In this document: positions 1 to 53,401 of the stretch, one piece after another
Layout of the letters: every line of letters starts with the position of its first letter
How positions within the stretch are numbered: the stretch's first letter is position 1
NCBI RefSeq assembly: GCF_030013595.1
Contig: NZ_CP122768.1
Length of the DNA: 64,000 bases
Reading direction: 5' to 3' (one strand)
From: Escherichia coli
GTDB taxonomy: Bacteria > Pseudomonadota > Gammaproteobacteria > Enterobacterales > Enterobacteriaceae
Position numbers and translations under genes: made by a program
The notes under the pieces: model-generated
What the model was told of the DNA's origin: nothing
Databases searched by the model: none
The model's input: only the letters and a program-made list of their open reading frames with translations

Positions 1-635
1 TGCTGAAAGAATATCTGCCAGCGTCCTACCACGAAGGATCTAAAAATCCGGTAGCGCGTGAACGTGTTCACAGTGCAGCAACTATCGCGGGTATCGCGTT
101 TGCGAACGCCTTCCTGGGTGTATGTCACTCAATGGCGCACAAACTGGGTTCCCAGTTCCATATTCCACACGGTCTGGCAAACGCCCTGCTGATTTGTAAC
201 GTTATTCGCTACAACGCGAACGACAACCCGACCAAGCAGACTGCATTCAGCCAGTATGACCGTCCACAGGCTCGCCGTCGTTATGCTGAAATTGCTGACC
301 ACCTGGGTCTGAGCGCACCGGGCGACCGTACTGCTGCTAAGATCGAGAAACTGCTGGCATGGCTGGAAACGCTGAAAGCTGAACTGGGTATTCCGAAATC
401 TATCCGTGAAGCTGGCGTTCAGGAAGCAGACTTCCTGGCGAATGTGGATAAACTGTCTGAAGATGCATTCGATGACCAGTGCACCGGCGCTAACCCGCGT
501 TACCCACTGATCTCCGAGCTGAAACAGATTCTGCTGGATACCTACTACGGTCGTGATTATGTAGAAGGTGAAACTGCAGCGAAAAAAGAAGCCGCTCCGG
601 CTAAAGCTGAGAAAAAAGCGAAGAAATCCGCTTAA
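1..635 (+). CDS. adhE: Aldehyde-alcohol dehydrogenase AdhE, C-terminal fragment (5' end lies outside window)
   Basis: Frame open from window edge to TAA 633-635; product ends AAKKEAAPAKAEKKAKKSA, recognisable AdhE C-terminus; ORF-track Met at 132 is internal. Confidence 0.85.
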   Translation, partial: LKEYLPASYHEGSKNPVARERVHSAATIAGIAFANAFLGVCHSMAHKLGSQFHIPHGLANALLICNVIRYNANDNPTKQTAFSQYDRPQARRRYAEIADHLGLSAPGDRTAAKIEKLLAWLETLKAELGIPKSIREAGVQEADFLANVDKLSEDAFDDQCTGANPRYPLISELKQILLDTYYGRDYVEGETAAKKEAAPAKAEKKAKKSA

Positions 636-661
636 TCAGTAGCGCTGTCTGGCAACATAAA

Positions 662-688
662 CGGTCCCTTCTGGGGCCGTTTTTTTGT
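662..688 (+). terminator. Rho-independent terminator downstream of adhE
   Basis: GC hairpin cggtccc-ttct-ggggccg followed by T7 run. Confidence 0.5.
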
Positions 689-937
689 TTTACCCAAAGC
701 AACTTTCCCATAAACCGACAGCATTTGCCTTCATCATATTTACGGCGATGTATAACGCCTAAACACAGCGATATTGTACTTTACAGGTCACAAGTCAACG
801 TCGGTGCTTAAGCGCCCTGTGAGGCGTATAGCGGCGTTAAAGAACTGTCGAGAAGGGTATATACACCGGAAGAAGTGAGTAAAACGAACTGACAGGATAA
901 AAGCGCCCTGCTCACCCTGTCAGTAAAGAAATTCTTA

Positions 938-1555
938 TTAATCGTGGCGATGCCTTTCCTGAATAGCCGTTAATGAGCCGACTTCTAACGCCTCTTTATA
1001 GTGTTTACGGCATACAGAAACGTAGCGTTCATTACCACCAATAACCACCTGCTCACCTTCGTTATAAGGTCTGCCTGCTTGATCAAGACGCAGCACCATG
1101 CTTGCTTTACGACCACAAAAACAGATGGTTTTTAATTCAACCAGTTTGTCGGACCATGCCAGTAAGTATTGGCTGCCAATAAATAATTCACCTCGAAAAT
1201 CGGTACGTAAACCATAACAAAGTACGGGTATATCGAGTTGATCGACAACCTCCGATAATTCATATACTTGTTGTCTGGTTAAAAACTGGCATTCATCAAC
1301 CAGTACGCAATGAATTGCCTGCTGTTCATGTTCCGCACGAATCTCATCAAATAATGATGAATTTTGGTTAAATAATTTTGCAGGCGATGACAAACCTATA
1401 CGCGAACTGACTTTCCCGGCACCAAAGCGATCATCAATTTCTGCCGTATATACGACAGTGCGCATGCCGCGTTCCTGGTAATTGTATGAAGATTGCAACA
1501 ATGCTGTAGACTTACCCGCATTCATTGCGGAATAGTAGAAATATAGCTGTGCCAT
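938..1555 (-). CDS. tdk: Thymidine kinase
   Basis: 205 aa ORF; P-loop GKS near N-terminus ([10 protein letters not shown]); length and sequence match Tdk. Confidence 0.93.
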
Positions 1556-2158
1556 CAGCCACAGGCCCTCAATGATATGAATTAAAGTTGGCTGGAGTTT
1601 ATCATAATTCGTCAGTTTTTCAGCTCAACAGTATGCACAGAAGTGGTATATGCGTTCTCCCTTACGAAGCCTTGCATAATCCTTCTGAGCTATCATTACA
1701 ACTGCCTCGCTTGTTATAAGCGGGTAAATGACTGCTGGTAACTATTCACAATCTTTAACCTGTTGCGCAAGTAATAGCCCTCTGTTGACCTCCTGGAGAT
1801 AGTGCAATACTAAGTCCCTGCTCTTATTGCGACTGTTCTACTTTTCATCATTCGCTTAATAGGGAATTCTCGTAAACACGACTAATACAGAAGACTGAAA
1901 GGTCGTCAGCCTACGATAATCTCCCCATAAAATGTGACATGAATCAGGAAGTTTTAACCTCACGTGCTGCGAAATCATCGGCGCAAATAGGGCTATATGC
2001 CGCGTCTTTTCTGGCTAATTTTATGAAAAGATATTTATTGGCGGCACAAAATAAAGAACAATTTTGAATTCCTTACATTCCTGGCTATTGCACAACTGAA
2101 TTTAAGGCTCTATTATTACCTCAACAAACCACCCCAATATAAGTTTGAGATTACTACA

Positions 2159-2572
2159 ATGAGCGAAGCACTTAAAATTCTGAACAACATCCGTACTCTT
2201 CGTGCGCAGGCAAGAGAATGTACACTTGAAACGCTGGAAGAAATGCTGGAAAAATTAGAAGTTGTTGTTAACGAACGTCGCGAAGAAGAAAGCGCGGCTG
2301 CTGCTGAAGTTGAAGAGCGCACTCGTAAACTGCAGCAATATCGCGAAATGCTGATCGCTGACGGTATTGACCCGAACGAACTGCTGAATAGCCTTGCTGC
2401 CGTTAAATCTGGCACCAAAGCTAAACGTGCTCAGCGTCCGGCAAAATATAGCTACGTTGACGAAAACGGCGAAACTAAAACCTGGACTGGCCAGGGCCGT
2501 ACTCCAGCTGTAATCAAAAAAGCAATGGATGAGCAAGGTAAATCCCTCGACGATTTCCTGATCAAGCAATAA
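2159..2572 (+). CDS. hns: Nucleoid-associated protein H-NS
   Basis: 137 aa [23 protein letters not shown]...TWTGQGRTP...; canonical H-NS sequence and length; AT-rich upstream region. Confidence 0.97.
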
Positions 2573-2595
2573 TCTTTTGTAGATTGCACTTGCTT

Positions 2596-2627
2596 AAAAA
2601 TCCCGCCATCGGCGGGATTTTTTATTG
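2596..2627 (+). terminator. Rho-independent terminator of hns
   Basis: aaaaatcccgcc-atc-ggcgggatttttt hairpin plus T-run immediately after hns stop. Confidence 0.7.
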
Positions 2628-2661
2628 TCCGGTTTAAGACAATTTAATAAGAATAAGCTAT

Positions 2662-2695
2662 AAAAAAACGGCGTCGATTGCTCAACGCCGTTTCG
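2662..2695 (-). terminator. Probable terminator of galU
   Basis: Inverted repeat aacggcgt...acgccgtt flanked by A/T runs just downstream of galU stop on minus strand. Confidence 0.55.
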
Positions 2696-2716
2696 TGGAT
2701 AACACCGATACGGATG

Positions 2717-3625
2717 TTACTTCTTAATGCCCATCTCTTCTTCAAGCCAGGCTTTAAATTCCGTGCCAAGGGTGTTATGACGAATACCGTATTCAACGAA
2801 GGCCTGCATGTAACCTAATTTATTACCGCAGTCATGGCTCTTCCCTTTCATATGATAGGCTTCCACCGTTTCTTTTTCGATCAGCATATCAATTGCGTCG
2901 GTGAGCTGAATTTCATCACCAGCTCCCGGAGGGGTTTTTGCCAGCAACGGCCAAATATCCGCGCTAAGTACGTAACGACCCACAATAGCGAGATTAGACG
3001 GCGCAACATCCGCTTTTGGTTTTTCAACCACGCCAACCATCGGTACGCTTTCACCCGGCGCTAATTCAACGCCTTTGCAATCCACAACGCCATATGCGGT
3101 CACATCAGCAACCGGTTCAACCATGATCTGGCTATGACCCGTTTCATCAAAGCGGCGGATCATCTCTGCCAGGTTATCCTGTGACAAATCGGATTCATAT
3201 TCATCCAGAATAACGTCAGGCAAAATAACAGCCACAGGTTCATCACCCACTACCGGGTGAGCACACAATACCGCGTGTCCCAGGCCTTTCGCCAGCCCCT
3301 GACGAACTTGCATAATAGTCACGTGCGGCGGACAAATAGACTGCACTTCATCAAGTAGTTGACGTTTTACACGTTTTTCCAGCATTGCTTCCAGTTCAAA
3401 ACTGGTATCAAAGTGGTTTTCAATCGAGTTTTTAGATGAGTGAGTAACCAGCACAATTTCAGTAATGCCAGCCGCAATACATTCATTCACGACGTATTGA
3501 ATTAATGGCTTATCGACAAGTGGCAGCATCTCTTTCGGGATGGCTTTCGTCGCCGGCAACATCCTGGTTCCTAATCCCGCAACGGGGATAACGGCTTTTT
3601 TGACTTTCGTATTAATGGCAGCCAT
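2717..3625 (-). CDS. galU: UTP--glucose-1-phosphate uridylyltransferase
   Basis: 302 aa ORF; N-terminal nucleotide-binding motif [22 protein letters not shown]; length matches GalU. Confidence 0.96.
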
Positions 3626-3826
3626 TTAAATTCTCCTGGACTGTTCGTGTTTTGAACGTGTTCATATTTCTGTATCGCATCCCAGTATATCAGCACCCCG
3701 AAGGGGCTAAGTTCTGAAAAGGATGCGAGTTAGCATAATTAAGACAATTACTTATACGAATGGCGACGATAGTACCACCAGCCGACATTAGCTGGTAATG
3801 CAAATTTAGCCCGCGTTATCGTTTGC

Positions 3827-4840
3827 TCATTCTGCAGACAACATCAAGCGCAGCCGACCACCGGTTCCCCATATTTGGCATTGCCAGGCATCGCATCGCT
3901 GGCTCAATTGATTCAAATAAGCGTTACCTAAAGTGCCTAACGGAACACCATTACTGATTTGCACCTGGTGTTCGCCGGTATTTAACGTCGCATTCAGCCC
4001 CGCAGAAACCAGAATGAGATTTTTCAGTTCGCGATGATAATAGCCAACTAATAGCGGAAACTGCCCCGGCAGATTGGCCTGACGGAGTAAATGGTTTACC
4101 TGCTTCAATAACGCGCCCAACTCTGGCAACCGTTGATTTTGGTGTGCAAGCTGTTCCTGTAATAATCCGTTAAACAATGCGCGTAATAACAAGGCAGCAA
4201 GTACGCCATTATGTCCAGCTCGGGTGACATCAAGGCAATAAAATGCCAGATCGTTTTCCGAAAGTGCGGCAATATCAAGCACCAGGCCGGGTTTGTCCGC
4301 GGCAACCAATTGACGATAATTAACCCGGCAATGGGAAATCACCTGCTGAACCGGCGGTTGCAATTCCTGTAATAATTTCGCCGCTGCGGCAGGGTTATCA
4401 ACCATTGCATCCCAGTCGCGAAAAAGCCTTTCCTCTTCCTCAACGCGGGAATTAAACATGCTGGGATAGAGACAGGCAAAAACCATCTCGCGCAAGCGAT
4501 TCAGATCTTTAACTGGTTTCAGCAAAACATCTTCAACGCCCAGACGTAACGCTTTGGCAATATCTGCCATATTTTCAGTGGCAGATATCACGAGAACAGG
4601 TGTCTGGTCACCTCTGTTACGTATATGCTCCAGCAGTTTAAGCCCGTTCATTCGTGGCATCGCGATATCACATATCATCAGGTCTGGAGTGAAACCTCCC
4701 AGCAACTCAAGGGCATCCACCCCATCAGCCGCCAGTACCGTTGTCGCTCCCAATGAGGAAAACCACGAATCCAGAAGCGAGCGAAATACCTGCTCATCTT
4801 CAACAATGAGAATCTGTTTTCCGACCAATGGCTGCGTCAT
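3827..4840 (-). CDS. rssB: Response-regulator adaptor for RpoS proteolysis (RssB)
   Basis: 337 aa ORF with N-terminal receiver domain (ILIVEDEQVFR...DLMICDIAMPRMNGL) and PP2C-like C-terminal domain. Confidence 0.94.
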   Translation of the reverse strand: MTQPLVGKQILIVEDEQVFRSLLDSWFSSLGATTVLAADGVDALELLGGFTPDLMICDIAMPRMNGLKLLEHIRNRGDQTPVLVISATENMADIAKALRLGVEDVLLKPVKDLNRLREMVFACLYPSMFNSRVEEEERLFRDWDAMVDNPAAAAKLLQELQPPVQQVISHCRVNYRQLVAADKPGLVLDIAALSENDLAFYCLDVTRAGHNGVLAALLLRALFNGLLQEQLAHQNQRLPELGALLKQVNHLLRQANLPGQFPLLVGYYHRELKNLILVSAGLNATLNTGEHQVQISNGVPLGTLGNAYLNQLSQRCDAWQCQIWGTGGRLRLMLSAE

Positions 4841-4931
4841 GTTCTCTCCCCTGACTGGCTTTACTCAATAGTGGCATGCTATTGCCACCTGCGCCTGTCA
4901 GAATTAACTTAAGTGTAGATAAAAATTCTGG

Positions 4932-5837
4932 TCAAATGTTGGTGCGTACCAACGGCAAAAGTTCGTCCATTTTCTTTTCCACTGCCAGCTGCCCAGCCGC
5001 AATGGCAGCGTGCGCGCGATGGAAATCAAGCGTAGATATTTGCGGGCAAACAGGTTGAATCAGAATATCGGGCGGATCACCTGCCATGCGGTTCCTTTTA
5101 AGGCGGTTCTCCAGCACCTGGATAGAAGTGGTCATAATCTCTGTTGCCGTTGGCGCTGTCACCGCCCGACGTGTCGTTATGCTGCCCAACCTTTCTTTCA
5201 GACGCGCATGCCACGGTAGAGAATCACCATTCTCGCTATTTTCTTCACTGACATTAAAGGAGAGCAGATCTTGTTGCATCAAATGAGCATCGTGCTGCAG
5301 GTCGACCGCTATCACAATATCAGCACCCAATGCACGCGTGAGCGAAATAGGAATTGGGTTAACTACAGCGCCATCAACCAGCCAGTAGCCGTTATGCGCA
5401 ACGGGTGCCATTAGTCCTGGAATACTGCATGATGCACGAATAGCAAGATGGAGATCGCCTTCAGTAAACCATAATTCGCGCCCAGTACTTAAATTGGTGG
5501 CAACAGCCGCGAAGCGACGGGAACAATTTTCGATCTCTGTTTCCGGCATTATTTCGCGATATTGATTGAAGACACGCTCGCCGCGCAGTAACCCACCGCG
5601 CTGCCAGGAGAGATCCATCAGGCGTAAAACATCCCAATAACTGAAAGAGGTCACCCAATCTTCCAGCGCAGACAGTCGATCGCATGCATAGGCAGCGCCC
5701 ACCAGCGAACCAATTGAACATCCTGCAACGATATCAATTTCAATACCCACTTTTTTTAGCGCATTAATAACGCCAATATGCGACCAACCTCTCGCCGCGC
5801 CAGATCCCAGCGCCAGCCCTATTTTTATCTTTCTCAT
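4932..5837 (-). CDS. rssA: Patatin-like phospholipase RssA
   Basis: 301 aa ORF; patatin GxSxG/oxyanion motifs (GLALGSGAARGWSHIGV, AGCSIGS). Confidence 0.92.
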   Translation of the reverse strand: MRKIKIGLALGSGAARGWSHIGVINALKKVGIEIDIVAGCSIGSLVGAAYACDRLSALEDWVTSFSYWDVLRLMDLSWQRGGLLRGERVFNQYREIMPETEIENCSRRFAAVATNLSTGRELWFTEGDLHLAIRASCSIPGLMAPVAHNGYWLVDGAVVNPIPISLTRALGADIVIAVDLQHDAHLMQQDLLSFNVSEENSENGDSLPWHARLKERLGSITTRRAVTAPTATEIMTTSIQVLENRLKRNRMAGDPPDILIQPVCPQISTLDFHRAHAAIAAGQLAVEKKMDELLPLVRTNI

Positions 5838-5949
5838 TATTCCCGCAAGATTCCCCTGGAATGCAATCGTAGCAACATCGCTACTGCTCGGTTAACATAG
5901 TGCTACTCAGGCGGTTAATACGCCGTTATTGTTTCCAGGGAGATTATTT

Positions 5950-6408
5950 GTGTCTCAGCTTTGTCCCTGTGGTAGTGCTGTCGAGTATAGCCTATGTTGC
6001 CACCCTTATGTGTCTGGTGAAAAGGTTGCACCTGATCCAGAACATCTCATGCGTTCGCGTTACTGCGCTTTTGTGATGAAAGACGCAGATTATTTAATAA
6101 AGACCTGGCATCCATCTTGTGGAGCGGCGGCGTTACGTGCCGAATTGATTGCCGGATTTGCGCATACTGAATGGTTGGGATTGACCGTATTTGAACATTG
6201 TTGGCAGGACGTCGACAATATCGGATTTGTCAGTTTTGTTGCGCGATTTACCGAAGGTGGCAAAACAGGTGCAATCATTGAACGTTCGCGATTTTTGAAA
6301 GAAAACGGTCAATGGTACTATATTGACGGTACACGTCCGCAGTTTGGCCGCAACGATCCCTGCCCTTGTGGTTCAGGTAAAAAATTTAAAAAGTGCTGCG
6401 GCCAATAA
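5950..6408 (+). CDS. ychJ: UPF0225 / SEC-C motif protein YchJ
   Basis: Cys-rich SEC-C-like motifs at both ends (CPCGS...[13 protein letters not shown]); GTG start at 5950 gives 152 aa; ORF-track start at 5929 is a 7-codon extension. Confidence 0.85.
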
Positions 6409-6457
6409 TGGTTGACGGTACGGTTTAGCAAACACTCTCAACAAGGTTTTTCCAGCA

Positions 6458-7300
6458 ATGCATTCACTCCAACGTAAAGTTCTGCGTACTATTTGTCCGG
6501 ACCAAAAAGGTCTGATCGCACGTATTACCAATATTTGCTACAAGCACGAGTTAAATATCGTACAGAACAATGAATTTGTTGATCACCGTACCGGGCGCTT
6601 TTTTATGCGCACGGAACTGGAAGGAATTTTTAATGATTCCACCCTGCTGGCGGATCTCGACAGCGCATTGCCAGAAGGCTCCGTACGTGAGCTGAATCCT
6701 GCTGGTCGTCGCCGGATAGTGATTCTGGTCACTAAAGAGGCGCATTGCCTTGGCGATTTGTTGATGAAAGCCAATTACGGCGGCCTGGATGTCGAAATCG
6801 CGGCAGTTATTGGTAACCACGATACTTTACGTTCTCTGGTTGAGCGTTTCGATATTCCGTTTGAGCTGGTAAGTCATGAAGGATTAAGCCGCAACGAGCA
6901 CGATCAAAAGATGGCGGATGCCATTGATGCTTATCAGCCTGACTACGTGGTGCTGGCGAAGTATATGCGGGTATTAACGCCAGAATTTGTGGCACGCTTC
7001 CCGAATAAGATCATCAATATTCACCATTCATTCCTGCCAGCGTTTATCGGCGCACGTCCTTATCACCAGGCCTATGAACGTGGCGTGAAGATTATTGGCG
7101 CAACCGCTCACTATGTGAATGACAATCTGGACGAAGGTCCAATCATCATGCAGGACGTTATTCATGTCGATCATACCTACACAGCTGAAGATATGATGCG
7201 CGCAGGTCGTGACGTCGAGAAAAACGTCTTAAGTCGCGCACTCTACAAAGTACTGGCGCAGCGCGTCTTTGTTTACGGTAATCGGACGATTATTCTTTAA
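6458..7300 (+). CDS. purU: Formyltetrahydrofolate deformylase
   Basis: 280 aa ORF; N-terminal ACT-like domain plus formyltransferase core (HHSFLPAF motif). Confidence 0.95.
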   Translation: MHSLQRKVLRTICPDQKGLIARITNICYKHELNIVQNNEFVDHRTGRFFMRTELEGIFNDSTLLADLDSALPEGSVRELNPAGRRRIVILVTKEAHCLGDLLMKANYGGLDVEIAAVIGNHDTLRSLVERFDIPFELVSHEGLSRNEHDQKMADAIDAYQPDYVVLAKYMRVLTPEFVARFPNKIINIHHSFLPAFIGARPYHQAYERGVKIIGATAHYVNDNLDEGPIIMQDVIHVDHTYTAEDMMRAGRDVEKNVLSRALYKVLAQRVFVYGNRTIIL

Positions 7301-7381
7301 TCGCCAGCAAAAATAACTGGTTACCTTTAATCCGTTACGGATGAAAATTACGCAACCAGTTCATTTTTCTCAACGTAACAC

Positions 7382-7409
7382 TTTACAGCGGCGCGTCATT
7401 TGATATGAT
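7382..7409 (+). promoter_or_regulatory. tyrT promoter (-35 TTTACA, 16-bp spacer, -10 TATGAT, GC-rich discriminator GCGCCCCGC)
   Basis: Sequence ctTTTACAgcggcgcgtcatttgaTATGATgcgccccgc matches the classic stringently controlled tyrT promoter, about 50 bp upstream of the first tRNA. Confidence 0.8.
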
Positions 7410-7459
7410 GCGCCCCGCTCCCCGATAAGGGAGCAGGCCAGTAAAAAGCATTACCCCGT

Positions 7460-7544
<85 letters not shown>

Positions 7545-7579
7545 TCTCAAGCATTACCTCAAAATTTGAATTACCCCGT

Positions 7580-7648
<69 letters not shown>

Positions 7649-7664
<16 letters not shown>

Positions 7665-8205
7665 TCACTTTCAAAAGTCCGTGAACTCTCAAACGAATCC
7701 GCGATTAAATATTCTGCCCATGCGGGGAAGGATGAGAAGCTTCGACCAAGGTTCGACTCGAGCGCCAGCGAGAGAGCGTGGCCGCAGGCAACGACCCGAA
7801 GGGCGAAGCGCGCAGCGCTGAGTAATCCTTCCCCCACCACCATCACTTTCAAAAGTCCCTGAACTCTCAAACGAATCCGTAATTAAATATTCTGCCCAAG
7901 CGGGGAAGGATGAGAAGCTTCGACCAAGGTTCGACTCGAGCGCCAGCGAGAGAGCGTTGCCGCAGGCAACGACCCGAAGGGCGAAGCGCGCAGCGCTGAG
8001 TAATCCTTCCCCCACCACCATCACTTTTCAAAAGTCCGTGAACTCTCAAACGAATCCGCAATTAAATATTCTGCCCATGCGGGGAAGGATGAGAAGCTTC
8101 GACCAAGGTGCGACTCGAGCGCCAGCGAGAAAGCGTTGCCGCAGGCAACGACCCGAAGGGTGAAGCGCGCAGCGCTGAGTAATCCTTCCCCCACCACCAT
8201 CACTT
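7649..8205 (+). repeat. Three and a bit tandem copies of a 178-bp repeat at the 3' end of the tyrT-tyrV operon (rtT/tpr region)
   Basis: Unit starts at 7649, 7827, 8005 and partial at 8184, each beginning with the tRNA 3'-end-like ccttcccccaccaccatcac; units differ by a few substitutions. Confidence 0.9.
7732..7821 (+). CDS. tpr: Protamine-like small protein Tpr (29 aa) encoded inside first 178-bp repeat
   Basis: ATG 7732 to TGA 7819-7821 encodes [29 protein letters not shown], Arg-rich; matches my recollection of the 29-aa Tpr; paralogous ORFs in repeats 2 and 3. Confidence 0.35.
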
Positions 8206-8286
8206 CCTGTAAATACTCAAAACCTGTTACTCCGAGCTAATTCTACCCAATGGCACCGCGTTTACCGGACCTACAATATCCTCCCC

Positions 8287-8318
8287 TGTAGGTCGGATAA
8301 GCGAAGCGCATCCGACAA
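8287..8318. repeat. REP (repetitive extragenic palindromic) element
   Basis: tgtaggtcggataagcg-aagc-gcatccgacaa imperfect palindrome of the REP type between repeat array and narI. Confidence 0.45.
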
Positions 8319-8339
8319 CTCACCCCGTACCGTGCCCAT

Positions 8340-8364
8340 AAAAAAACCCCGCCGAAGCGGGGTC
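8340..8364 (-). terminator. Rho-independent terminator of narGHJI
   Basis: Minus-strand reading gaccccgcttcggcggggttttttt: GC stem with ttcg loop and T7 run 20 bp after narI stop. Confidence 0.75.
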
Positions 8365-8383
8365 TATGCAAACTAAAATTCGC

Positions 8384-9061
8384 TTAGTGACGAGCGCGCA
8401 CCAGCTGATACTTACGTGTCAGATACTCCACCGGTACGCTCCAGATGTGCACCAGACGTGAGAACGGGAACAGCAAGAATAACGTCATCCCCAGCACCAG
8501 GTGCAGACGGAAGATAAACGCCACACCATCAAGGTGTTGAGAAGCGCCACCGTGGAAGGTCACTACCGACTGCGCCCAGCCAACCAGTTTCATCATCTCG
8601 CTACCGTCCATATGCTGGGCGGAGAACGGAATGGTCAGCAAGCCCAGAGCGCACTGGATAACCAGCAGAGACAGGATCAGGATATCCGCTCCGGTAGTCG
8701 TTGCACGCACGCGTGGGCTGAACAGACGACGTTTCAGCAACAGCACGCCGCCAATCAGACACAGCACGCCGCTGGCACCACCAGCAAACATCGCCATTTT
8801 CTGTTTCACTTCAATCGGCAGCCAGGCTTCATACATCCAGTGCGGCGTCAGCATACCGAAGAAGTGACCAACAAAAATCCCCAGAATACCGATATGGAAC
8901 AGGTTCGACGCCAGGTTCATCCCTTTGCGATCCAGCATCTGGCTGGACGCCGCGCGCCAGGTGTACTGCCCGTAGTCATAACGCAGCCAGCTACCAATCA
9001 GGAAGACCGCCCCGGCTATGTACGGGTAGATATCAAAGAAGAACATATTCAGGAATTGCAT
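8384..9061 (-). CDS. narI: Respiratory nitrate reductase gamma subunit (cytochrome b)
   Basis: 225 aa polytopic membrane ORF, last gene of narGHJI. Confidence 0.96.
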
Positions 9062-9771
9062 TAGTGCTGTCCTCCGGTGGTGATATTCAGATATTGCGGC
9101 GCGACGGCACCAGCAAAGCGACGCTGATGAGCAGTGATTGCTGAATCACCGCAGCCTTTGTCAGCAAAGAATTTAACCTGCTCTTCTTCCCAGACAGCAT
9201 CCAGCGCCTGCGGCGTATCGTCGCGCGCTTCGTCGGCAATTTTTTCCGCCACTTTGTCGCTGTCGATTGCGGTATTCGCCAGTTTCAGCAGCAGATCAAA
9301 CAGCACGGCATAACGGCTTTCACGCTGTTGCAGACGCGCACTCAGCAATGCCAGAATCGGCGCAATATCTATCAAACCCTCCACGGCTTCGCTTTGCGGC
9401 AGCTGCGCCAGGTACTCCAGATACAGCGGCAGATGGTCGGGCAATTCGCGGCTGTTTAACTGCAAACCGTGCTGCTCATACTGCGCCAGCAGGTCTACCA
9501 TCGCCTGACCGCGGTCGCGGGATTCCCCGTGAACGTGTTCAAACAGCAACAGCGACGTGGCGCGACCACGATCGAACAGTTCGCTGTACTGCGCCTGGGC
9601 ATCGAGCGGATCCATCGTCGTTAAATCGCGCAGGAAAATGCCCAGCGCATGGGCATCTTCTTTCGACAGATTTTTCGACGCAGCAATTGCCTCAAACATC
9701 TCTTGTTGATGCTGCCATAAGGCAGCATCCGGATATTCAAGGAGACGCGATACAATCACGAGTTCGATCAT
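9061..9771 (-). CDS. narJ: Nitrate reductase delta subunit / molybdenum cofactor assembly chaperone
   Basis: 236 aa ORF; start overlaps narH stop and stop overlaps narI start. Confidence 0.96.
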
Positions 9772-11306
9772 GGGTGCGGCTCCGTTTTGCTGGTTACGTC
9801 GATGGCATCGATACGGCGGCTGTTGAACAGATTGAATTTGGTATCTGAACCGTGGCAGCCATCACCAAAGGTAAAGCCGCAGCCATTTTTCTCCGGGAAG
9901 GCTTCCCGCGCCAGTTCACGATGACTGCTCGGCACCACAAAGCGATCTTCGTAGTTAGCAATCGCCAGATAACGGTACATCTCCTGTGCCTGGGCTTCGG
10001 TCAGACCGACCTCTTCCAGCGCACGGGTATCGCCTTTACCGTCAACGGTTTCAGCACGTTTGTAATGACGCATCGCCAGCATACGTTTCAGCGCGCGCAG
10101 TACTGGTTTGGTATCACCGGCGGTCAGCAGATTCGCCAGATACTGTACCGGAATACGCAGACTTTCGACGTCTGGCAGAATGCCGTTGCTGCCCAGTTCA
10201 CCCGCATCTGCCGCAGACTGAATCGGCGACAGAGGCGGCACGTACCAGACCATCGGCAGTGTGCGATATTCCGGATGCAGCGGCAGCGCCAGTTTCCATT
10301 CCATCGCCATTTTATAAACCGGCGACTGCTGTGCGGCTTCAATAACGCTCAGCGGAATACCGTCTTTAATTGCCTGCTCGATGACTTTCGGATCGTTCGG
10401 ATCGAGGAACACCTCCAGCTGACGCTGGTAGAGATCTTTCTCGTTCTCGGTGCTGGCTGCACGTTCAATGGCGTCCGCATCGTACAGCAGCACGCCGAGA
10501 TAACGGATACGACCGACACAGGTTTCAGAGCACACCGTCGGCTGACCCGCTTCAATACGCGGATAGCAGAAGATGCACTTCTCAGACTTACCGCTCTTCC
10601 AGTTGAAGTAGATTTTTTTGTACGGGCATCCGGTGATGCACATACGCCAGCCACGGCATTTATCCTGGTCGATCAGGACGATGCCATCTTCTTCACGCTT
10701 GTAAATCGCACCGCTCGGGCAGGTCGCCACACATGCCGGGTTCAGGCAGTGTTCGCACAGGCGCGGCAAATACATCATGAAGGTGTTTTCGAACTGGCTA
10801 TACATCGCCTTCTGGATGTTGTCGAAGTTCTTGTCTTTCGCCAGCTTGTCAAACTCACCGCCCAGGTCATCTTCCCAGTTCGGCCCTTTTTCGATTTTCG
10901 CCATACGTTCGCCGGTAATCAGCGAACGCGGACGGGCAATCGGCTGCGATTTGCTGCCTTCCGGCGCGGTATGCAGGTTCTGATAATCAAAATCGAACGG
11001 CTCGTAATAATCGTCGATACCCGGCAGATGCGGGTTAGCAAAGATTTTACCCAGCAGCATGGCGCGGTTACCCATGCGCGGCTGCAGTTTGCCGTTGATT
11101 TTACGGATCCAGCCGCCTTTGTATTTTTCCTGGTTTTCCCAGTCAGTCGGGAAGCCCTGGCCCGGCTTGGTTTCCACGTTGTTGAACCACGCGTATTCCA
11201 CGCCTTCGCGGCTGGTCCAGACGTTTTTACAGGTAACTGAACAGGTGTGGCAGCCGATGCACTTATCGAGATTCAGCACCATGCCGACTTGTGAACGAAT
11301 TTTCAT
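9768..11306 (-). CDS. narH: Respiratory nitrate reductase beta subunit (Fe-S)
   Basis: 512 aa ORF with multiple ferredoxin-type Cys clusters (CIGCHTCSVTC, CEHCLNPACVATCP, CRGWRMCITGCPYKK). Confidence 0.97.
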   Translation of the reverse strand: MKIRSQVGMVLNLDKCIGCHTCSVTCKNVWTSREGVEYAWFNNVETKPGQGFPTDWENQEKYKGGWIRKINGKLQPRMGNRAMLLGKIFANPHLPGIDDYYEPFDFDYQNLHTAPEGSKSQPIARPRSLITGERMAKIEKGPNWEDDLGGEFDKLAKDKNFDNIQKAMYSQFENTFMMYLPRLCEHCLNPACVATCPSGAIYKREEDGIVLIDQDKCRGWRMCITGCPYKKIYFNWKSGKSEKCIFCYPRIEAGQPTVCSETCVGRIRYLGVLLYDADAIERAASTENEKDLYQRQLEVFLDPNDPKVIEQAIKDGIPLSVIEAAQQSPVYKMAMEWKLALPLHPEYRTLPMVWYVPPLSPIQSAADAGELGSNGILPDVESLRIPVQYLANLLTAGDTKPVLRALKRMLAMRHYKRAETVDGKGDTRALEEVGLTEAQAQEMYRYLAIANYEDRFVVPSSHRELAREAFPEKNGCGFTFGDGCHGSDTKFNLFNSRRIDAIDVTSKTEPHP

Positions 11307-14300
11307 TTTACGCTCTCCTGTACCTGGTCATTGCCTTCGCCATCTAACCAGTCAATGTTCTTCATCTTACGCACTACAACAAACTCATCGCGGTTAGAAC
11401 CTACGGTGCCGTAGTAGTTAAAGCCGTATGCCAGATGGGCATAGCCGCCGATCATATGCGTCGGTTTCGGCGTGATACGGGTGACCGAGTTATGGATACC
11501 ACCACGCTGTTGGGTAATTTCCGAACCAGGCAGGTTAACGATACGTTCCTGCGCGTGGTACATCATGGTCATCCCTGCCGGAACACGCTGGCTGACAACC
11601 GCACGGGCAGTCAGAGCACCGTTGCGGTTGAAGACTTCAATCCAGTCGTTATCGGCGATACCCAGCTCTTTGGCATCGGCTTCACTCAGCCAGACCACCG
11701 GACCACCGCGACCTAAAGTCAGCATCAGCAGGTTGTCGCTGTAGGTGGAGTGGATACCCCACTTCTGGTGCGGCGTCAGGAAGTTGAGCGCTTTTTCCGG
11801 GTTGCCGTTGGATTTCTGGCCTATCACTTCTTTCACCGAACGGGTGTCGATCGGCGGACGGTAAACCAGCAAGCTTTCACCGAAATCACGCATCCATTGG
11901 TGATCCTGATACAGCTGCTGACGGCCAGAGAGCGTACGCCACGGGATCAGCTCGTGAACGTTGGTGTAACCGGCGTTGTAAGAAACGTGTTCATCTTCAA
12001 GGCCAGACCAGGTCGGGCTGGAGATGATTTTGCGCGGCTGTGCCTGAATATCGCGGAAGCGAATCTTCTCGTCTTCTTTATTCAGCGCCAGATGCGTATG
12101 GTCACGACCGGTAAACTCGCTCAGGGCAGCCCAGGCTTTCACGGCTACCTGACCGTTGGTTTCCGGTGCCAGCGTCAGGATCATCTCTGCCGCATCAATT
12201 GCGGTATTGAGCATCGGCTGACCTTTTGCCGGACCTTCCGCTTTGGTGTAGTTGAGCTTACGCAGCAGATCCATCTCGCTCTGGGTGTTCCAGGCAATCC
12301 CTTTACCGCCGTTACCGATTTTCTCCATCAGCGGGCCGATAGAGGTAAAGCGTTCGTAAGTTGCCGGATAATCGCGCTCTACGACCATAATGTGCGGTGC
12401 AGTTTTACCTGGGATCAGGTCGCATTCGCCTTTTTTCCAGTCTTTCACATCCAGCGGCTGCGCCAGTTCAGCGGCAGAGTCGTGCTGGATAGGCAGCGTG
12501 ACGATGTCAGTTTCTTTACCCAGATGACCAACGCACACTTCGGAGAATTTCTTCGCGATGGCTTTGTAGATTTCCCAGTCGCTTTTCGCTTCCCAGGCCG
12601 GATCGACCGCCGCAGACAGCGGGTGAATAAACGGATGCATATCCGAAGTATTCATGTCGTCTTTTTCGTACCAGGTCGCCGTCGGCAAAATGATGTCGGA
12701 ATAGAGACAGGTGCTCGACAGACGGAAGTCCAGCGTCACCACCAGATCCAGCTTGCCTTCCAGACCGTTGTCCTGCCAGTCCACTTCTTCCGGCTTCACG
12801 CCGCCCTGCTGACCCAGGTCTTTACCCTGGATACCGTGCTCCGTCCCCAGCAGGTACTTGAGCATAAACTCATGACCTTTACCGGAAGAACCGAGCAGGT
12901 TAGAGCGCCAGATGAACAGGTTACGCGGGTGGTTTTTACCGTTTTCTGGTTGTTCTGCCGCAAAACGGATAGAACCCTCTTTCAGGGATTTCACGGTGTA
13001 ATCCACCGGATTCATGCCCGCTTTTTCCGCTTCGCGAGCGATAGTCAGCGGGTTAGTGCCTAACTGCGGCGCAGACGGCAGCCAGCCCATACGTTCTGCA
13101 CGGACGTTAAAGTCGATCAGATGTCCGGTATAACGGGATTTATCCGCCATCGGTGACAGCAACTCTTCCGCCGTGACGGTTTCATAACGCCACTGGCTGG
13201 AGTGGTTATAGAAATAAGAAGTGCTGTTCATGTGACGCGCCGGACGCTGCCAGTCAAGGGCAAACGCCAGCGGCTGCCAGCCGGTTTGCGGACGCAGTTT
13301 TTCCTGACCTACATAGTGCGCCCAGCCGCCCCCGCTCTGACCGACACAGCCGCAGAAAATCAGCATGTTGATCAGACCACGATAGTTCATATCGAGGTGA
13401 TACCAGTGGTTCAGCCCCGCACCGACGATAATCATTGAACGACCGTGGGTTTTATCAGCGTTATCGGCAAATTCACGGGCGATGCGAATAATCTGGCTGC
13501 GAGAAACGCCGGTAATCTGCTCGGCCCAGGCAGGGGTGTAAGCTTTCACATCGTCATAGCTGGTTGCACAATTAACGTCGTTCAGGCCACGTTCCAGACC
13601 GTAGTTTGCCAGCGTCAGATCATAAACGGTGGTCACCAGGGCGGTGCTGCCATCAGCCAGTTGCAGGCGTTTCACCGGCAGTTTGTGCAGCAGCACGTTT
13701 TCCAGTTCCACTTTGTTGAAGTGTTCAGTACCGTCGCCACCAAAGTACGGGAAGCCAACCTCAGCGATCTCATCCTGGCTACCCAGCAGGCTTAGTTGCA
13801 GCTCGGTTTCTTCGCCAGTTTTGCCGTCGCGCTGTTCAAGATTCCATTTGCCCTTCTCGCCCCAGCGGAAGCCGATAGAACCGTTCGGCGCAACCATTTC
13901 GCCATTGGTATTAAAGGCGACAGTTTTCCATTCCGGATTGTTTTCCTGGCCCAGCGCATCCACCAGATCAGCAGCGCGCAGCATACGACCCGCAGCGTAG
14001 TAACCGTCGCGTTCTTCCAGCATCACCAGCATCGGCATGTCGGTGTAGCGACGCACATAGTCGGTGAAATACTGGCTTGGGTTGTCGAGGTGGAATTCAC
14101 GCAGCATTACGTGGCCCATCGCCAGCGCCATTGCCGCATCGGTGCCCTGTTTCGGTGCCAGCCACAGATCGCACAGTTTGGCGATTTCAGCGTAGTCTGG
14201 CGTGACGGCAACAGTTTTGGTGCCTTTGTAACGCACTTCAGTAAAGAAGTGAGCATCCGGGGTACGCGTCTGCGGCACGTTTGAACCCCAGGCGATGATG

Positions 14301-48710: not shown

Positions 48711-48982
48711 GCCACGAAATGCCCCCCATTCTACGGTCTATGCCTTTATTTTCTTTTATCAGAGAAGATTTTAATTTTATTTTATCAATTTGTTAATCAT
48801 TACACCTCTATTTATATTTTTCGCCACTCCGCCATTCTCCCTGACAATTTTCTTGTGGAACAAAGTGTTATTTAAGCAACAAGCAAATCATTCTGTCTCT
48901 TTAGACAAATTTTGACATCAAACATGATTTTTTTCGATATATATGTAAATATATAGCGGTTTTTATTATCAGGATATAACTT

Positions 48983-50005
48983 ATGTCACTAACCAGACGG
49001 AGGTTTACACAGATTCTTGCGTCGACATTGTTCCTGCATCATCTGCCGTCCTTTGCACAATCAGTCAAATTCTGGGCCTCACTGACGCTTCCCGAAGCCC
49101 AAAACATTACACGCATCGTCAGCGCAGGCGCGCCCGCCGATTTACTATTGCTGGCTGTCGCGCCAGAAAAAATGGTCGGTTTTTCCTCTTTTGATTTTGC
49201 CCGTCAGGCATTAATTCCATTGCCAGAGCACATTCGCCAGTTCCCCAGGCTGGGACGACTCGCCGGGCGCGCCAGCACACTCTCGCTGGAAGGGCTTATG
49301 GCGTTACATCCCGATTTGGTCGTTGATTGCGGCAATACGGATGAAACCTGGATCTCCCAGGCACGGCAGGTTAGCGAACAGACACAAATACCCTGGTTAT
49401 TGCTTAACGGGAAACTGGAACAATCAGCAGAACAGTTAACAACGCTTGGCAAAACGTTAGGCGAAGAGCACCGCACCGCAGAACAAGCCAATCTCGCCAG
49501 CCGCTTCGTTGGTGAAGCTCAGGCATTCGCCACCTCACCCGCCGCTAACCTCAGCTTTTATGCTGCGCGCGGTCCTCGAGGGCTGGAAACGGGCTTACAG
49601 GGTTCGTTGCATACCGAGGCGGCGGAATTATTAGGTTTGCACAACGTCGCGCAAATAGCCGATCGCCACGGTCTGACACAGGTTTCCATGGAAAATCTCC
49701 TGCGCTGGCAGCCGGATATTATTCTGGTTCAGGAGGCCGTTACTGCAGATTTTATTCGTCGTGATCCTCTCTGGCAGGGCGTGAAAGCGGTTGCGGAACA
49801 ACGCATCTTATTTTTAAGTGGCCTGCCCTTTGGCTGGCTGGATGCCCCGCCGGGAATCAACCGTCTTCTGGGATTACGCAGACTTCACGCCTGGCTGGAT
49901 CCCGCCATCAATCGCCAGTTTAAAAGTGACATGCAGCATTACGCCCAACTGTTCTGGCATTGCCCATTAAGTGACGCCGACTATCAAAAATTGGTGGCGA
50001 GCTAA
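48983..50005 (+). CDS. ABC transporter periplasmic substrate-binding protein (FecB/BtuF-like, class III) with Tat-type signal
   Basis: 340 aa; N-terminus MSLTRRRFTQILASTLFLHHLPSFAQ has twin-arginine motif; SD agga upstream; first gene of operon; stop overlaps next start (TAATG). Confidence 0.85.
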   Translation: MSLTRRRFTQILASTLFLHHLPSFAQSVKFWASLTLPEAQNITRIVSAGAPADLLLLAVAPEKMVGFSSFDFARQALIPLPEHIRQFPRLGRLAGRASTLSLEGLMALHPDLVVDCGNTDETWISQARQVSEQTQIPWLLLNGKLEQSAEQLTTLGKTLGEEHRTAEQANLASRFVGEAQAFATSPAANLSFYAARGPRGLETGLQGSLHTEAAELLGLHNVAQIADRHGLTQVSMENLLRWQPDIILVQEAVTADFIRRDPLWQGVKAVAEQRILFLSGLPFGWLDAPPGINRLLGLRRLHAWLDPAINRQFKSDMQHYAQLFWHCPLSDADYQKLVAS

Positions 50006-50985
50006 TGAGAACCGTAAACGGATGTATTTTGCTGCTGGCAGCTATCAGTATCACTTTTGCCGCCGTAAGTGGGGCTTATCATCTCGATATACAGCAACTG
50101 CTGGCGCTCATTCTGCGTCAAGAAAATGTTCCTGTGCAGGAACAAATTGTCTTCTGGCAAATCCGCGTGCCGCGTATTCTTGCTGCGCTGTTTCTGGGCG
50201 CGGCGCTGGCAGGGGCCGGAACCACCTATCAGGGAATGTTCCGTAATCCCTTAGTGTCACCGGATATTTTAGGCGTCTCCGCCGGTGCCGGACTTGGTGC
50301 CTGCGCGGCAATCCTGTGGGGATTATCCATTGTTTACATCCAGCTGTACGCATTTTGCGGCGGGCTGATGGTGGTCGCGGGCGTCTGGTTGATTACGCGT
50401 CGGGTGACCCGCCACGATCCGATCTTAACCCTGGTGCTGGTAGGCATTGCGTTAGGAACGTTGTGCGGAGCGGGGATATCGCTAATAAAAACGCTGGCCG
50501 ATCCTTACACCCAGTTACCGTCAATTACCTTCTGGTTGCTGGGGGGGCTGTCCACCGTGACCTTACGCGATCTCTGCTATGCTGCACCGATCATTCTCAT
50601 AGGCTCCTTGCCCCTGTTTTTTCTCCGCTGGCGCATGAATTTACTCACGCTTTCCGACGACGAAGCCCGTTCGCTGGGACTGAACGTGACACGTCTGCGC
50701 TTTGGATTAATTGTCTGCGCCACACTAATCACCGCCAGCACGGTAGCAATAGCGGGCATAATTGGTTGGGTCGGCCTGGTCGTTCCGCACATTGCCCGCT
50801 TGTTGACCGGTCATAACCATCAGCAGCTGTTGCCCATGGCAATGTGTACTGGCGCGATTCTGCTCCTGCTTACCGATACGCTGGCACGCAGCATTGGAAC
50901 AACAGAAATCCCACTTGGCATTCTGACCGCTTTTGTTGGTGCACCGTTTTTCCTGTTTTTGTTGTTACGCGGAGGTCGCCAGTGA
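50005..50985 (+). CDS. ABC transporter permease, FecCD family
   Basis: 326 aa polytopic protein with FecCD-type conserved region. Confidence 0.88.
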   Translation: MRTVNGCILLLAAISITFAAVSGAYHLDIQQLLALILRQENVPVQEQIVFWQIRVPRILAALFLGAALAGAGTTYQGMFRNPLVSPDILGVSAGAGLGACAAILWGLSIVYIQLYAFCGGLMVVAGVWLITRRVTRHDPILTLVLVGIALGTLCGAGISLIKTLADPYTQLPSITFWLLGGLSTVTLRDLCYAAPIILIGSLPLFFLRWRMNLLTLSDDEARSLGLNVTRLRFGLIVCATLITASTVAIAGIIGWVGLVVPHIARLLTGHNHQQLLPMAMCTGAILLLLTDTLARSIGTTEIPLGILTAFVGAPFFLFLLLRGGRQ

Positions 50986-51740
50986 CTTTGCTTGCCGTCC
51001 GTCATGCGTCTCTGGGTTACTCCCGCCATCCGGTGCTACGCGACGTGTCCTTCACCCTGTCGCAAGGAACAATTTGTTGTCTGTTAGGAGCCAATGGTTG
51101 CGGCAAAACCACACTCATGCGCTCCATTCTTGGCGTTATACCGTTATTAAAAGGCGAGATCTTACTGGATAGCCTCCCTGTGCAGACACTCAGCCATCGC
51201 CAGCGCGCGCAGGCTATTGCCTGGGTGCCGCAGGCGCACGACGGCATTTTTGCTTTTAGTGTGCTGGATATGGTGTTGATGGGCCTGGCCCCCACCATAG
51301 GCGCTTTTTCCGTTCCCGGTAAGCAAGAACGCCTGAAAGCAACGGAGCAACTGGAAAAGCTGGGCATTTTGCATCTGGCGACACGACGCTGGAATACGCT
51401 TAGCGGCGGTGAACGTCAGCTGGCTTTAATCGCTCGTGCACTCGTCCAGCAACCGCGCTTGTTATTACTGGATGAGCCTGCCTCCAGCCTCGATTTCGGT
51501 CATCAGATCCAACTACTGGACACGCTGGCGCAGCTCAAAAATAACGGCATGACAATGTTAATGTCGACTCATCATCCGCTCCATGCCAACGCCATTGCCG
51601 ACAGCATTATCCAGGTAGAGCCAGATGGACGAGTAACACAAGGCTTACCGACCGAACAGTTAACAACGAACAAACTGGCTGCCCTGTACCGGGTTTCTGC
51701 CGACCAGATTCACCATCACCTCTCTGCAATTAAGCACTAA
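50982..51740 (+). CDS. ABC transporter ATP-binding protein
   Basis: GTG 50982 overlapping permease stop (GTGA); Walker A GANGCGKTT, signature LSGGERQ, Walker B LLLLDEP; 252 aa. Confidence 0.85.
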   Translation: MTLLAVRHASLGYSRHPVLRDVSFTLSQGTICCLLGANGCGKTTLMRSILGVIPLLKGEILLDSLPVQTLSHRQRAQAIAWVPQAHDGIFAFSVLDMVLMGLAPTIGAFSVPGKQERLKATEQLEKLGILHLATRRWNTLSGGERQLALIARALVQQPRLLLLDEPASSLDFGHQIQLLDTLAQLKNNGMTMLMSTHHPLHANAIADSIIQVEPDGRVTQGLPTEQLTTNKLAALYRVSADQIHHHLSAIKH

Positions 51741-51749
51741 GGAAAAATC

Positions 51750-52550
51750 ATGCTCATTGACGATATTGATTTTGCAGACCTTTACCTTCAGCAACTCAGG
51801 CTGGCCCATCGCACAGAAAAAACGCCGGATCACTGGGATCAACGGGCGGAAAATTGCGCCTCGCCTACGGACAGCTACCTGCAACAACTGATCGCTAAAA
51901 TTGACCTACAAGGCGCTCAGACCTTATTCGATATGGGCTGCGGACCGGGTACCGTATCGCTGGCGCTGGCTGACAAACTCACGACGATTTATGGCGTTGA
52001 TTACAGTCAGGGGATGCTGAAGGTTGCCGCCCGTCGCGCCGCCGCGCTAAAGGCAGACAATGTCCACTGGATCCAGCGCGCCTGGGAAGAGGACTGGAGT
52101 GACCTGCCACGCTGCGATATTGCCGTGGCTTCCCGCTCCACTCTGGTGGCTGATATGCGCCAGGCAATGAGCAAACTGAATAATCAGGCACGGCTTCGCG
52201 TCTATACGACTCATCTGGTCAGCACCTCGTTCGTCTCTCCAGCCATTCAGCGGGCGGCTGGTCGGGAAGTGATCGAATTACCCAACTATATCTTTGCGCT
52301 CAACGTCCTGTATCAGATGGGAATTTATGCTCACGTTGATTTTATCCGTGGACAAAATTGCCAACAGGATAACAGCACCTGGGAACGTTTTGAGCAGAAC
52401 GTCAGCTGGAGTCTGGGCGCGCTTAACGACGATGAGCGTGAGCGGTTATATCGCTGGTATCAACAACAAGATGCTCGTGCCCTCGCCCCTGCCAGCCGCG
52501 ACTGGGCGCTCATCTGGTGGGATAGCGTACCGCAAGAGGCACTGCGATGA
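51750..52550 (+). CDS. SAM-dependent methyltransferase (class I)
   Basis: 266 aa; motif I LFDMGCGPGTVSLALA; SD aagga upstream; 4-nt overlap with next gene. Confidence 0.78.
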   Translation: MLIDDIDFADLYLQQLRLAHRTEKTPDHWDQRAENCASPTDSYLQQLIAKIDLQGAQTLFDMGCGPGTVSLALADKLTTIYGVDYSQGMLKVAARRAAALKADNVHWIQRAWEEDWSDLPRCDIAVASRSTLVADMRQAMSKLNNQARLRVYTTHLVSTSFVSPAIQRAAGREVIELPNYIFALNVLYQMGIYAHVDFIRGQNCQQDNSTWERFEQNVSWSLGALNDDERERLYRWYQQQDARALAPASRDWALIWWDSVPQEALR

Positions 52551-53401
52551 TTTTCCTTTCTCAGGCACAAATCGATGCGTTACTTCTGGAAGATATCCAG
52601 GGCGGTGACCTGACCACGCGAGCATTAAATATTGGACACCAGCATGGCTATATAGAGTTTTTTCACCGTCAGGGCGGCTGCGTCAGCGGAATTTCTGTCG
52701 CGTGTAAGATGTTAACTACGCTGGGATTAACTATTGATGACGCGGTCAGCGACGGTTCACAAGCGAACGCGGGTCAGCGGCTAATCCGTGCGCAGGGTAA
52801 TGCCGCAGCACTTCATCAGGGATGGAAGGCAGTCCAGAATGTGCTGGAGTGGAGTTGCGGTGTTTCTGATTATCTCGCTCAAATGCTGGCGTTACTTCGT
52901 GAACGTTACCCTGATGGCAATATCGCCTGCACCCGAAAAGCAATTCCGGGCACCCGCTTACTGGCCTCGCAGGCAATTCTGGCTGCCGGAGGACTGATTC
53001 ATCGTGCCGGATGTGCGGAAACCATATTATTGTTTGCCAACCACCGCCATTTTCTTCATGACAATCAGGACTGGTCAGGCGCAATCAATCAGTTACGTCG
53101 CCACGCACCCGAGAAGAAAATAGTTGTTGAAGCCGACACGCCGAAAGAGGCAATCGCCGCGTTACGCGCGCAACCAGACGTACTTCAGCTCGACAAATTT
53201 AATCCGCAACAGGCAACTGAAATTGCGCAAATAGCACCGTCGCTGGCTCCTCACTGCACGCTGGCTCTGACCGGCGGAATTAATCTGACAACACTCAAAA
53301 ATTACCTCGACTGCGGCATTCGCCTTTTTATTACCTCCGCGCCTTATTACGCGACACCAGCTGACATTAAAGTCAGTCTGCAACCCGCAGCCTCTATTTA
53401 A
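52547..53401 (+). CDS. ModD / nicotinate-nucleotide pyrophosphorylase (QPRTase)-fold protein
   Basis: 284 aa; resembles ModD/NadC family (family assignment from sequence impression, not searched). Confidence 0.7.
   Translation: MIFLSQAQIDALLLEDIQGGDLTTRALNIGHQHGYIEFFHRQGGCVSGISVACKMLTTLGLTIDDAVSDGSQANAGQRLIRAQGNAAALHQGWKAVQNVLEWSCGVSDYLAQMLALLRERYPDGNIACTRKAIPGTRLLASQAILAAGGLIHRAGCAETILLFANHRHFLHDNQDWSGAINQLRRHAPEKKIVVEADTPKEAIAALRAQPDVLQLDKFNPQQATEIAQIAPSLAPHCTLALTGGINLTTLKNYLDCGIRLFITSAPYYATPADIKVSLQPAASI

Follow-up and report, generated by a model that had tools for sequence, protein, structure and literature searches.

A probable twin-arginine signal peptide on the class III binding protein of a ModE-linked gene cassette in Escherichia coli

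A stretch of Escherichia coli chromosomal DNA of 64,000 nucleotides (RefSeq assembly GCF_030013595.1, contig NZ_CP122768.1; the whole of this stretch is called the window below) carries six closely packed genes in one orientation between treA and ymgE, in the order binding protein, FecCD permease, ATPase, S-adenosylmethionine (SAM) methyltransferase, ModD and TonB-dependent receptor. The first of these genes, which encodes a class III (PF01497) binding protein of 340 amino acids, and the export of its product are the subject of this analysis. Translation of its open reading frame (48983-50005, + strand) gives a product beginning MSLTRRRFTQILASTLFLHHLPSFAQSVKF, as the initial annotation had it, and positions 48983-49060 translate as MSLTRRRFTQILASTLFLHHLPSFAQ, the N-terminus of the protein. 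The ATG at 48983 is the earliest start codon past the preceding stop and the RefSeq start for the binding protein is the same in identical E. coli genomes. The first 25 residues are probably a functional twin-arginine (Tat) signal peptide, and Tat is the best-supported route of export. The features of the gene are as follows.

48971..48974, + strand: Shine-Dalgarno sequence AGGA, read from the sequence, with a spacing of 8 nucleotides to the ATG
48983..49057, + strand: predicted Tat signal peptide of 25 codons, with n-region MSLT-RR-R, h-region FTQILASTLFLHHL and c-region PSFA, and a predicted cut after A25
48995..49000, + strand: twin arginines R5-R6 (AGA CGG), 98-99% conserved in 83 orthologues and encoded by six different Arg codons across genera
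49058..50005, + strand: mature class III (cluster A, PF01497) periplasmic binding protein (Pfam PF01497 E 1e-15; AlphaFold pLDDT 92)

The T-R-R-x-F motif which the initial annotation reported is present as T-R5-R6-x-F (T-R-R-R-F-T-Q), with R7 taking the place of the variable "x". The RRRFT stretch fits the default pattern of TatP (RR.[FGAVML][LITMVF]), but as that pattern alone gives 7% false positives among Gram-negative Sec (general secretory) signals (PMC1182353), a match in one sequence is little proof. The same figure favours the alternative that this is an ordinary Sec signal, in which the Arg-Arg-Arg of the n-region arose by chance and from which the protein crosses the membrane unfolded via SecYEG; we consider this quite unlikely, as the pattern of conservation across the family argues against it. 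In a set of 83 non-identical orthologues (49-98% identity), R5 and R6 equal the SAGxPAD core of the mature part in their conservation (98-99%) and have entropies of only 0.19 and 0.09 bit, compared to 1-3 bit at the other positions of the signal, while R7 is fully variable. A census in which one genome per species was scanned gave 80 cassette loci from some 30 genera, and the N-terminus could be resolved at 75 of them, 58 having RR, two KR (Shewanella) and 15 neither. All six Arg codons were seen at both R5 and R6 among the 62 distinct RR N-termini of the census, which shows that selection acts on the Arg-Arg amino acids and not on the DNA, and the consensus of these N-termini is [T/N/S/H]-R-R-x-F(48/62)-L(37/62)-[Q/K]. 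This family consensus matches the textbook Tat consensus, S/T-R-R-x-F-L-K. A Sec n-region would tolerate Lys, yet Arg-Arg is found in 58 of the 60 N-termini from outside the Pasteurellaceae, and this, together with the use of all six codons and the frequency of Phe at +3, is hard to reconcile with a chance run of arginines. In two genomes (Citrobacter braakii ATCC 51113 and Raoultella ornithinolytica NBRC 105727) the match to the binding protein starts only at residue 37 and the upstream frame encodes no RR signal; disruption of the N-terminus or a sequence error is possible there.

The h-region of the E. coli signal is short, very weakly hydrophobic and broken by His-His, and the weak hydrophobicity described in the initial annotation was borne out by measurement. 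At 1.23, its peak 12-residue Kyte-Doolittle value is below that of every complete signal among the 25 E. coli Tat signals listed in PMC7549933; the mean of the 25 is 1.68. It is also far below the values of the Sec-type signals within the family (2.2-2.5), which is a further point against an ordinary Sec signal. The census loci with RR have a mean of 1.72 and the RR-less loci, which are those of Pasteurellaceae, a mean of 2.22; in the wider family the corresponding values for cluster representatives are 1.97 and 2.52 (Mann-Whitney p = 5e-6). The A-x-A-like cleavage site that had been proposed also stands, as S-F-A ahead of Q26 satisfies the -3/-1 rule for signal peptidase I and A25 is 84% conserved in the 83 orthologues.

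Several observations weigh against a Tat signal, and most of them count in favour of a Sec signal. The motif departs from F-L-K, being F-T-Q in E. coli and F-A-Q in Citrobacter, both of them degenerate forms; many Citrobacter orthologues (RRxFA) do not fit the TatP pattern at all, and the signal is short, having only 25 residues. The curated hidden Markov models for Tat signals, Pfam TAT_signal (PF10518) and TIGR01409, gave no match either on the N-terminus or on the full protein. TAT_signal matches only 1-2 of 38 orthologues and is thus insensitive for this binding-protein family, so that negatives from such models are weak evidence. The extraintestinal pathogenic E. coli (ExPEC) strain PCN033 carries the island with an identical signal peptide, and the binding protein is absent from the published TatP-based list of 25 substrates of that strain (PMC7549933); either its TatP score was too low for inclusion, or the list had been restricted to known substrates. 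(The strain table of the same paper gives a "modD" deletion mutant of PCN033 where its results table has mdoD, which is probably a typing error and not the modD of the cassette.) For Proteus mirabilis HI4320, on the other hand, a published TatP analysis placed PMI2675 among 20 substrates with a clear Tat motif, listing it as an iron-compound ATP-binding cassette (ABC) solute-binding protein whose RRQFL stands at position 5 and which is cut past residue 27. The P. mirabilis orthologue recovered here, MAIHRRQFLSYLTTLAALSALPRCARA, agrees with these published details, and PMI2675 thus appears to be the Proteus orthologue of the binding protein, an identification which rests on the matching details and not on an accession. 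A TatP-positive apparent orthologue speaks against the Sec alternative.

The 15 loci without RR are all from Pasteurellaceae (Haemophilus, Aggregatibacter and Glaesserella), and their signals are of the classic Sec type, MKKWIGIALALCVSTSAFA (MKKW..., no RR), and more hydrophobic. This too is a point against Tat export and for the Sec alternative, as Tat is not obligatory for the fold, and the mature domain, to judge by these signals, is evidently exported unfolded in the Pasteurellaceae. The family has thus changed between signals of the RR type and of the Sec type, which shows the mature domain to be compatible with Sec, and this switching favours a promiscuous signal, which would engage Tat but could also use Sec, so that export in a tat mutant would be reduced and not abolished. 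Many E. coli Tat signal peptides reportedly send reporters through both pathways (Tullman-Ercek et al. in 2007). We regard promiscuity as unlikely for the protein considered here, in view of the very low hydrophobicity of its h-region, with its two His residues, and of a Lys at position +4 of the mature protein, which disfavours Sec.

The Pasteurellaceae signals bear equally on the reason for Tat use. The initial annotation saw in Tat export a sign that the protein folds, and perhaps takes up a cofactor or metal, while still in the cytoplasm. In its strict form, in which export has to wait for cytoplasmic folding around a cofactor or metal, this explanation is favoured by the frequency of cofactors among Tat substrates, by the link of the operon to molybdenum and by its two genes for cytoplasmic enzymes, the methyltransferase and ModD. 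We nevertheless consider it very improbable. The orthologues of Haemophilus, Aggregatibacter and Glaesserella have Sec-type signals, hence the mature fold needs no folding or loading in the cytoplasm; a Pfam scan found no cofactor-binding domain besides PF01497; and the loading of a binding protein for import before its own export would be counter-productive. A related rationale, that cytoplasmic folding shields a buried thiol of Cys116 or Cys327, was rejected, as Cys116 is found in 39 of 69 RR proteins and so is not consistently tied to RR, which also tells against loading; in 15 RR proteins the mature part is free of Cys.

Tat signals also occur on solute-binding proteins without cofactors, and the comparison with Tat-dependent binding proteins which the initial annotation had proposed gives precedents for such export. 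FhuD of E. coli (PMC7549933) and of Salmonella are listed as predicted Tat substrates, Tat use by the cyanobacterial Tery_3377 is experimentally supported with an RR-to-KK control, and several ABC binding proteins of Achromobacter are predicted Tat substrates that were detected in the periplasm. As FhuD is itself an E. coli protein of this class, the statement that Tat export is uncommon for siderophore-binding proteins is weakened. The Tat dependence of export of the present protein is inferred from these sequence features, and on that basis the binding protein would fold in the cytoplasm, its RR motif would be recognised by TatBC, the folded protein would be carried across the inner membrane by TatABC, and signal peptidase I would cut past A25; such a route would require no cofactor, as with FhuD. 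The most economical reading, by analogy with what is assumed for FhuD, is that Tat may be used since the protein folds quickly or since its signal is incompatible with Sec.

The region upstream of the binding-protein gene holds two further elements.

48912..48917, + strand: TTGACA hexamer, a perfect match read from the sequence and tentatively a -35 element
48933..48960, no strand assigned: ModE-type operator TTCGATATATA-TGTAAA-TATATAGCGGT, matching 20 of the 22 specified positions of ATCGNTATATA-N6-TATATANCGAT

The operator, scored against the E. coli ModE consensus ATCGNTATATA-N6-TATATANCGAT (PMC545781), has two mismatches and is separated from the ATG downstream by 23 bp. No other sequence of the 64-kb window comes within 3 mismatches of the consensus, and shuffled sequences would be expected to give 0 such matches. 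Across the census a ModE site precedes the binding-protein gene at 42 of the 80 loci and the receptor gene at 17, with at least one such site at 54, compared to only 6 other ModE sites in 1.07 Mb, two of which, in Gilliamella, appear to sit where a receptor gene on the reverse strand begins. Sites ahead of the binding-protein gene, of the receptor gene or of both were found in Citrobacter, Serratia, Shewanella (where one site is perfect), Proteus, Providencia, Wohlfahrtiimonas, metagenomic loci and others. No -35/-10 pair at the operator stood out convincingly when the region was scanned for consensus promoters. The operator lies between the TTGACA hexamer and the ribosome-binding site and should therefore overlap the -10/+1 region, implying repression by ModE-molybdate, and the operon is probably repressed in this way and expressed under molybdenum shortage. 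Nowhere in the window does a sequence come within 3 mismatches of the 19-bp Fur box consensus, although a more degenerate site would escape this threshold. A distant metagenomic relative whose binding protein is 38% identical (locus L006) has a ModE-like gene with HTH_1 and TOBE domains (11622-12437) in the ModD slot, and a different locus (L008) has a cassette of receptor, binding protein, ModD and permease genes (1-4463) with a perfect ModE operator upstream and, adjoining it at 4876-10215, genes for formate dehydrogenase, a molybdopterin enzyme.

The genes that follow the binding-protein gene are these.

50005..50985, + strand: FecCD/BtuC-type permease of a type II ABC importer (NCBIfam BtuC, FecD and FhuB family models; RefSeq)
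50982..51740, + strand: ABC ATPase (NCBIfam/RefSeq annotation)
51750..52550, + strand: class I SAM-dependent methyltransferase, a conserved cassette member in the equivalent position at most of the 80 loci
52547..53401, + strand: ModD, quinolinate phosphoribosyltransferase-like (TIGR01334, 501 bits against a cut-off of 179)
53427..55397, + strand: TonB-dependent receptor gene, which in this strain is inactivated, its translation showing a premature in-frame stop at codon 165 (53919-53921)

The binding protein has the features of the PF01497 class, namely the domain itself, a long helix (162-183) in the AlphaFold model and adjacent genes for a FecCD permease and an ATPase, and the model (pLDDT 92) finds structural matches that are all class III. 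The profile search and the predicted structure agreed on the closest solved structure, 4pag, an ABC solute-binding protein of Sulfurospirillum deleyianum from structural genomics (phmmer E 5e-25, profile E 3e-84, TM ~0.8), which is uninformative on specificity because its deposit titles name neither ligand nor function. Next came MolA of Haemophilus influenzae (3psa; Foldseek E 6e-17, TM ~0.7, identity ~20%, profile E 7e-34), a class III protein which binds molybdate and tungstate and is likewise encoded next to modD. The Haemophilus loci of the census were considered as candidates for MolA itself and rejected, since their match to 3psa is just E 3e-11.

The siderophore-binding label given to the protein in the initial annotation is doubtful in view of the ModE operator, the presence of ModD, the lack of a Fur box within the limits of the search above and MolA as the nearest characterised structure. 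Iron-specific NCBIfam models scored far under their cut-offs (FecB 31.9 of 320 bits, FepB 22.3 of 205 and IsdE 19.2 of 299), and so the protein is probably not a ferric-siderophore binder and the annotation "iron ABC transporter" is probably wrong. As the promoter region carries a ModE operator, the ligand is likely to be a molybdenum or tungsten species, either the oxyanion or a larger complex. A TonB-dependent receptor and a BtuC-like permease would suit a cargo larger or scarcer than free molybdate, and an imported complex could be bound to a metallophore or be cofactor-like, and be processed in the cytoplasm by the methyltransferase and ModD. We therefore propose, tentatively and with rather less than even confidence, that the cassette is an uncharacterised, ModE-controlled and TonB-dependent route of molybdenum or tungsten acquisition which imports a complex and not free molybdate, and whose binding protein is a conserved Tat substrate absent from the catalogue based on K-12. 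No description of the cassette was found in the literature on ModD, TonB and molybdenum or on PMI2675-2680, genome-wide surveys of ModE sites being outside this scope.

The stop at codon 165 of the receptor gene is a point against the overall reading of the binding protein and its cassette, as the uptake system may not work in the strain analysed. The island is present in 2149 of 5426 complete E. coli genomes (~40%), and the 4 kb of the window that was tested is 100% identical to pig isolate HCP5S3_I2. Among other E. coli, the pig isolates HCP5S3_I2 and K_EC180 have a frameshifted receptor gene, and ECA64 and PCN033 an intact one; PCN033 has an internal stop in the permease instead. Independent decay of the cassette thus seems to be under way in several E. 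coli lineages, with the binding-protein gene and its signal intact. K-12 lacks the island and has ycgY in its place between ymgE and treA (MG1655 1245160-1245600), and for this reason the binding protein is missing from K-12 Tat substrate lists; ycgY was considered as a remnant of the island and rejected, as the K-12 ymgE-ycgY-treA interval matches the window only at the ymgE end.

Some smaller differences between loci were also seen. The methyltransferase gene is 801 nucleotides long here and 813 in ECA64, K_EC180 and PCN033, an in-frame difference of 12 nucleotides which explains why a 4001-base query matched 4013 bases in these three strains. K_EC180 has an internal stop in treA (locus L011, 1856-3553), and an element of the IS66 family adjoins treA in ECA64 (locus L010, 1-1616). 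A contig binned as a metagenome-assembled genome of Collinsella (JAIJJM010000486.1) carries the E. coli operon at 99% identity, probably by misbinning or contamination. Affinibrenneria salicis has two whole cassettes on one scaffold, about 760 kb apart and with identical match statistics, for which a large duplication or an assembly artefact is possible.

A Tat signal on the binding protein would by itself add one likely substrate to the K-12-based E. coli Tat catalogue. Tat signals are already known from this class of proteins, and the apparently ModE-controlled cassette of receptor, ABC importer, methyltransferase and ModD genes is the more notable observation. A single binding-protein family that alternates between Tat and Sec signals is, all the same, a natural example which could help to explain why proteins without cofactors use Tat. 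The ModE operator and ModD suggest that many Enterobacterales have a second route for molybdenum or tungsten, one that depends on a receptor; the cassette itself occurs in ~40% of complete E. coli genomes and in roughly 30 genera of gamma- and betaproteobacteria. Anaerobic respiration that depends on molybdoenzymes matters in gut colonisation, and a published transposon screen identified PMI2675, the apparent Proteus orthologue, as a candidate fitness factor in the bloodstream.

Compared to known systems, the binding protein resembles E. coli FhuD in being a class III PF01497 protein of a FecCD-type importer, without a cofactor and with an RR signal (MSGLPLISRRRLLTAMALSPLLWQMNTAQA in FhuD), but the two are only remotely related, FhuD chains appearing far down the profile list of PDB structures at E ~1e-9. 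FhuD binds hydroxamates and belongs to the Fur-regulated fhu operon, whereas the gene described here is preceded by a ModE operator, lacks a Fur box match at up to 3 mismatches and is absent from K-12. The MolBC-A system of Haemophilus influenzae (HI1470-HI1472) shares with the cassette a class III binding protein, a type II importer and an adjacent modD, and differs from it in lacking the methyltransferase and TonB-dependent receptor that the cassette adds and in the ~20% identity between the two binding proteins. ModABC has a ModE operator of the same ATCGNTATATA-N6-TATATANCGAT type directly ahead of its first gene; ModA is of another binding-protein class, ModBC is a type I importer, and the system has no outer-membrane receptor, methyltransferase or ModD. 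The BtuB-BtuFCD and siderophore routes are like the cassette in combining a receptor, a class III binding protein, a FecCD/BtuC permease and an ATPase, and the cassette is set apart from them by a ModE site instead of Fur control or a B12 riboswitch, by its two extra cytoplasmic enzymes and by the probable Tat signal on its binding protein.

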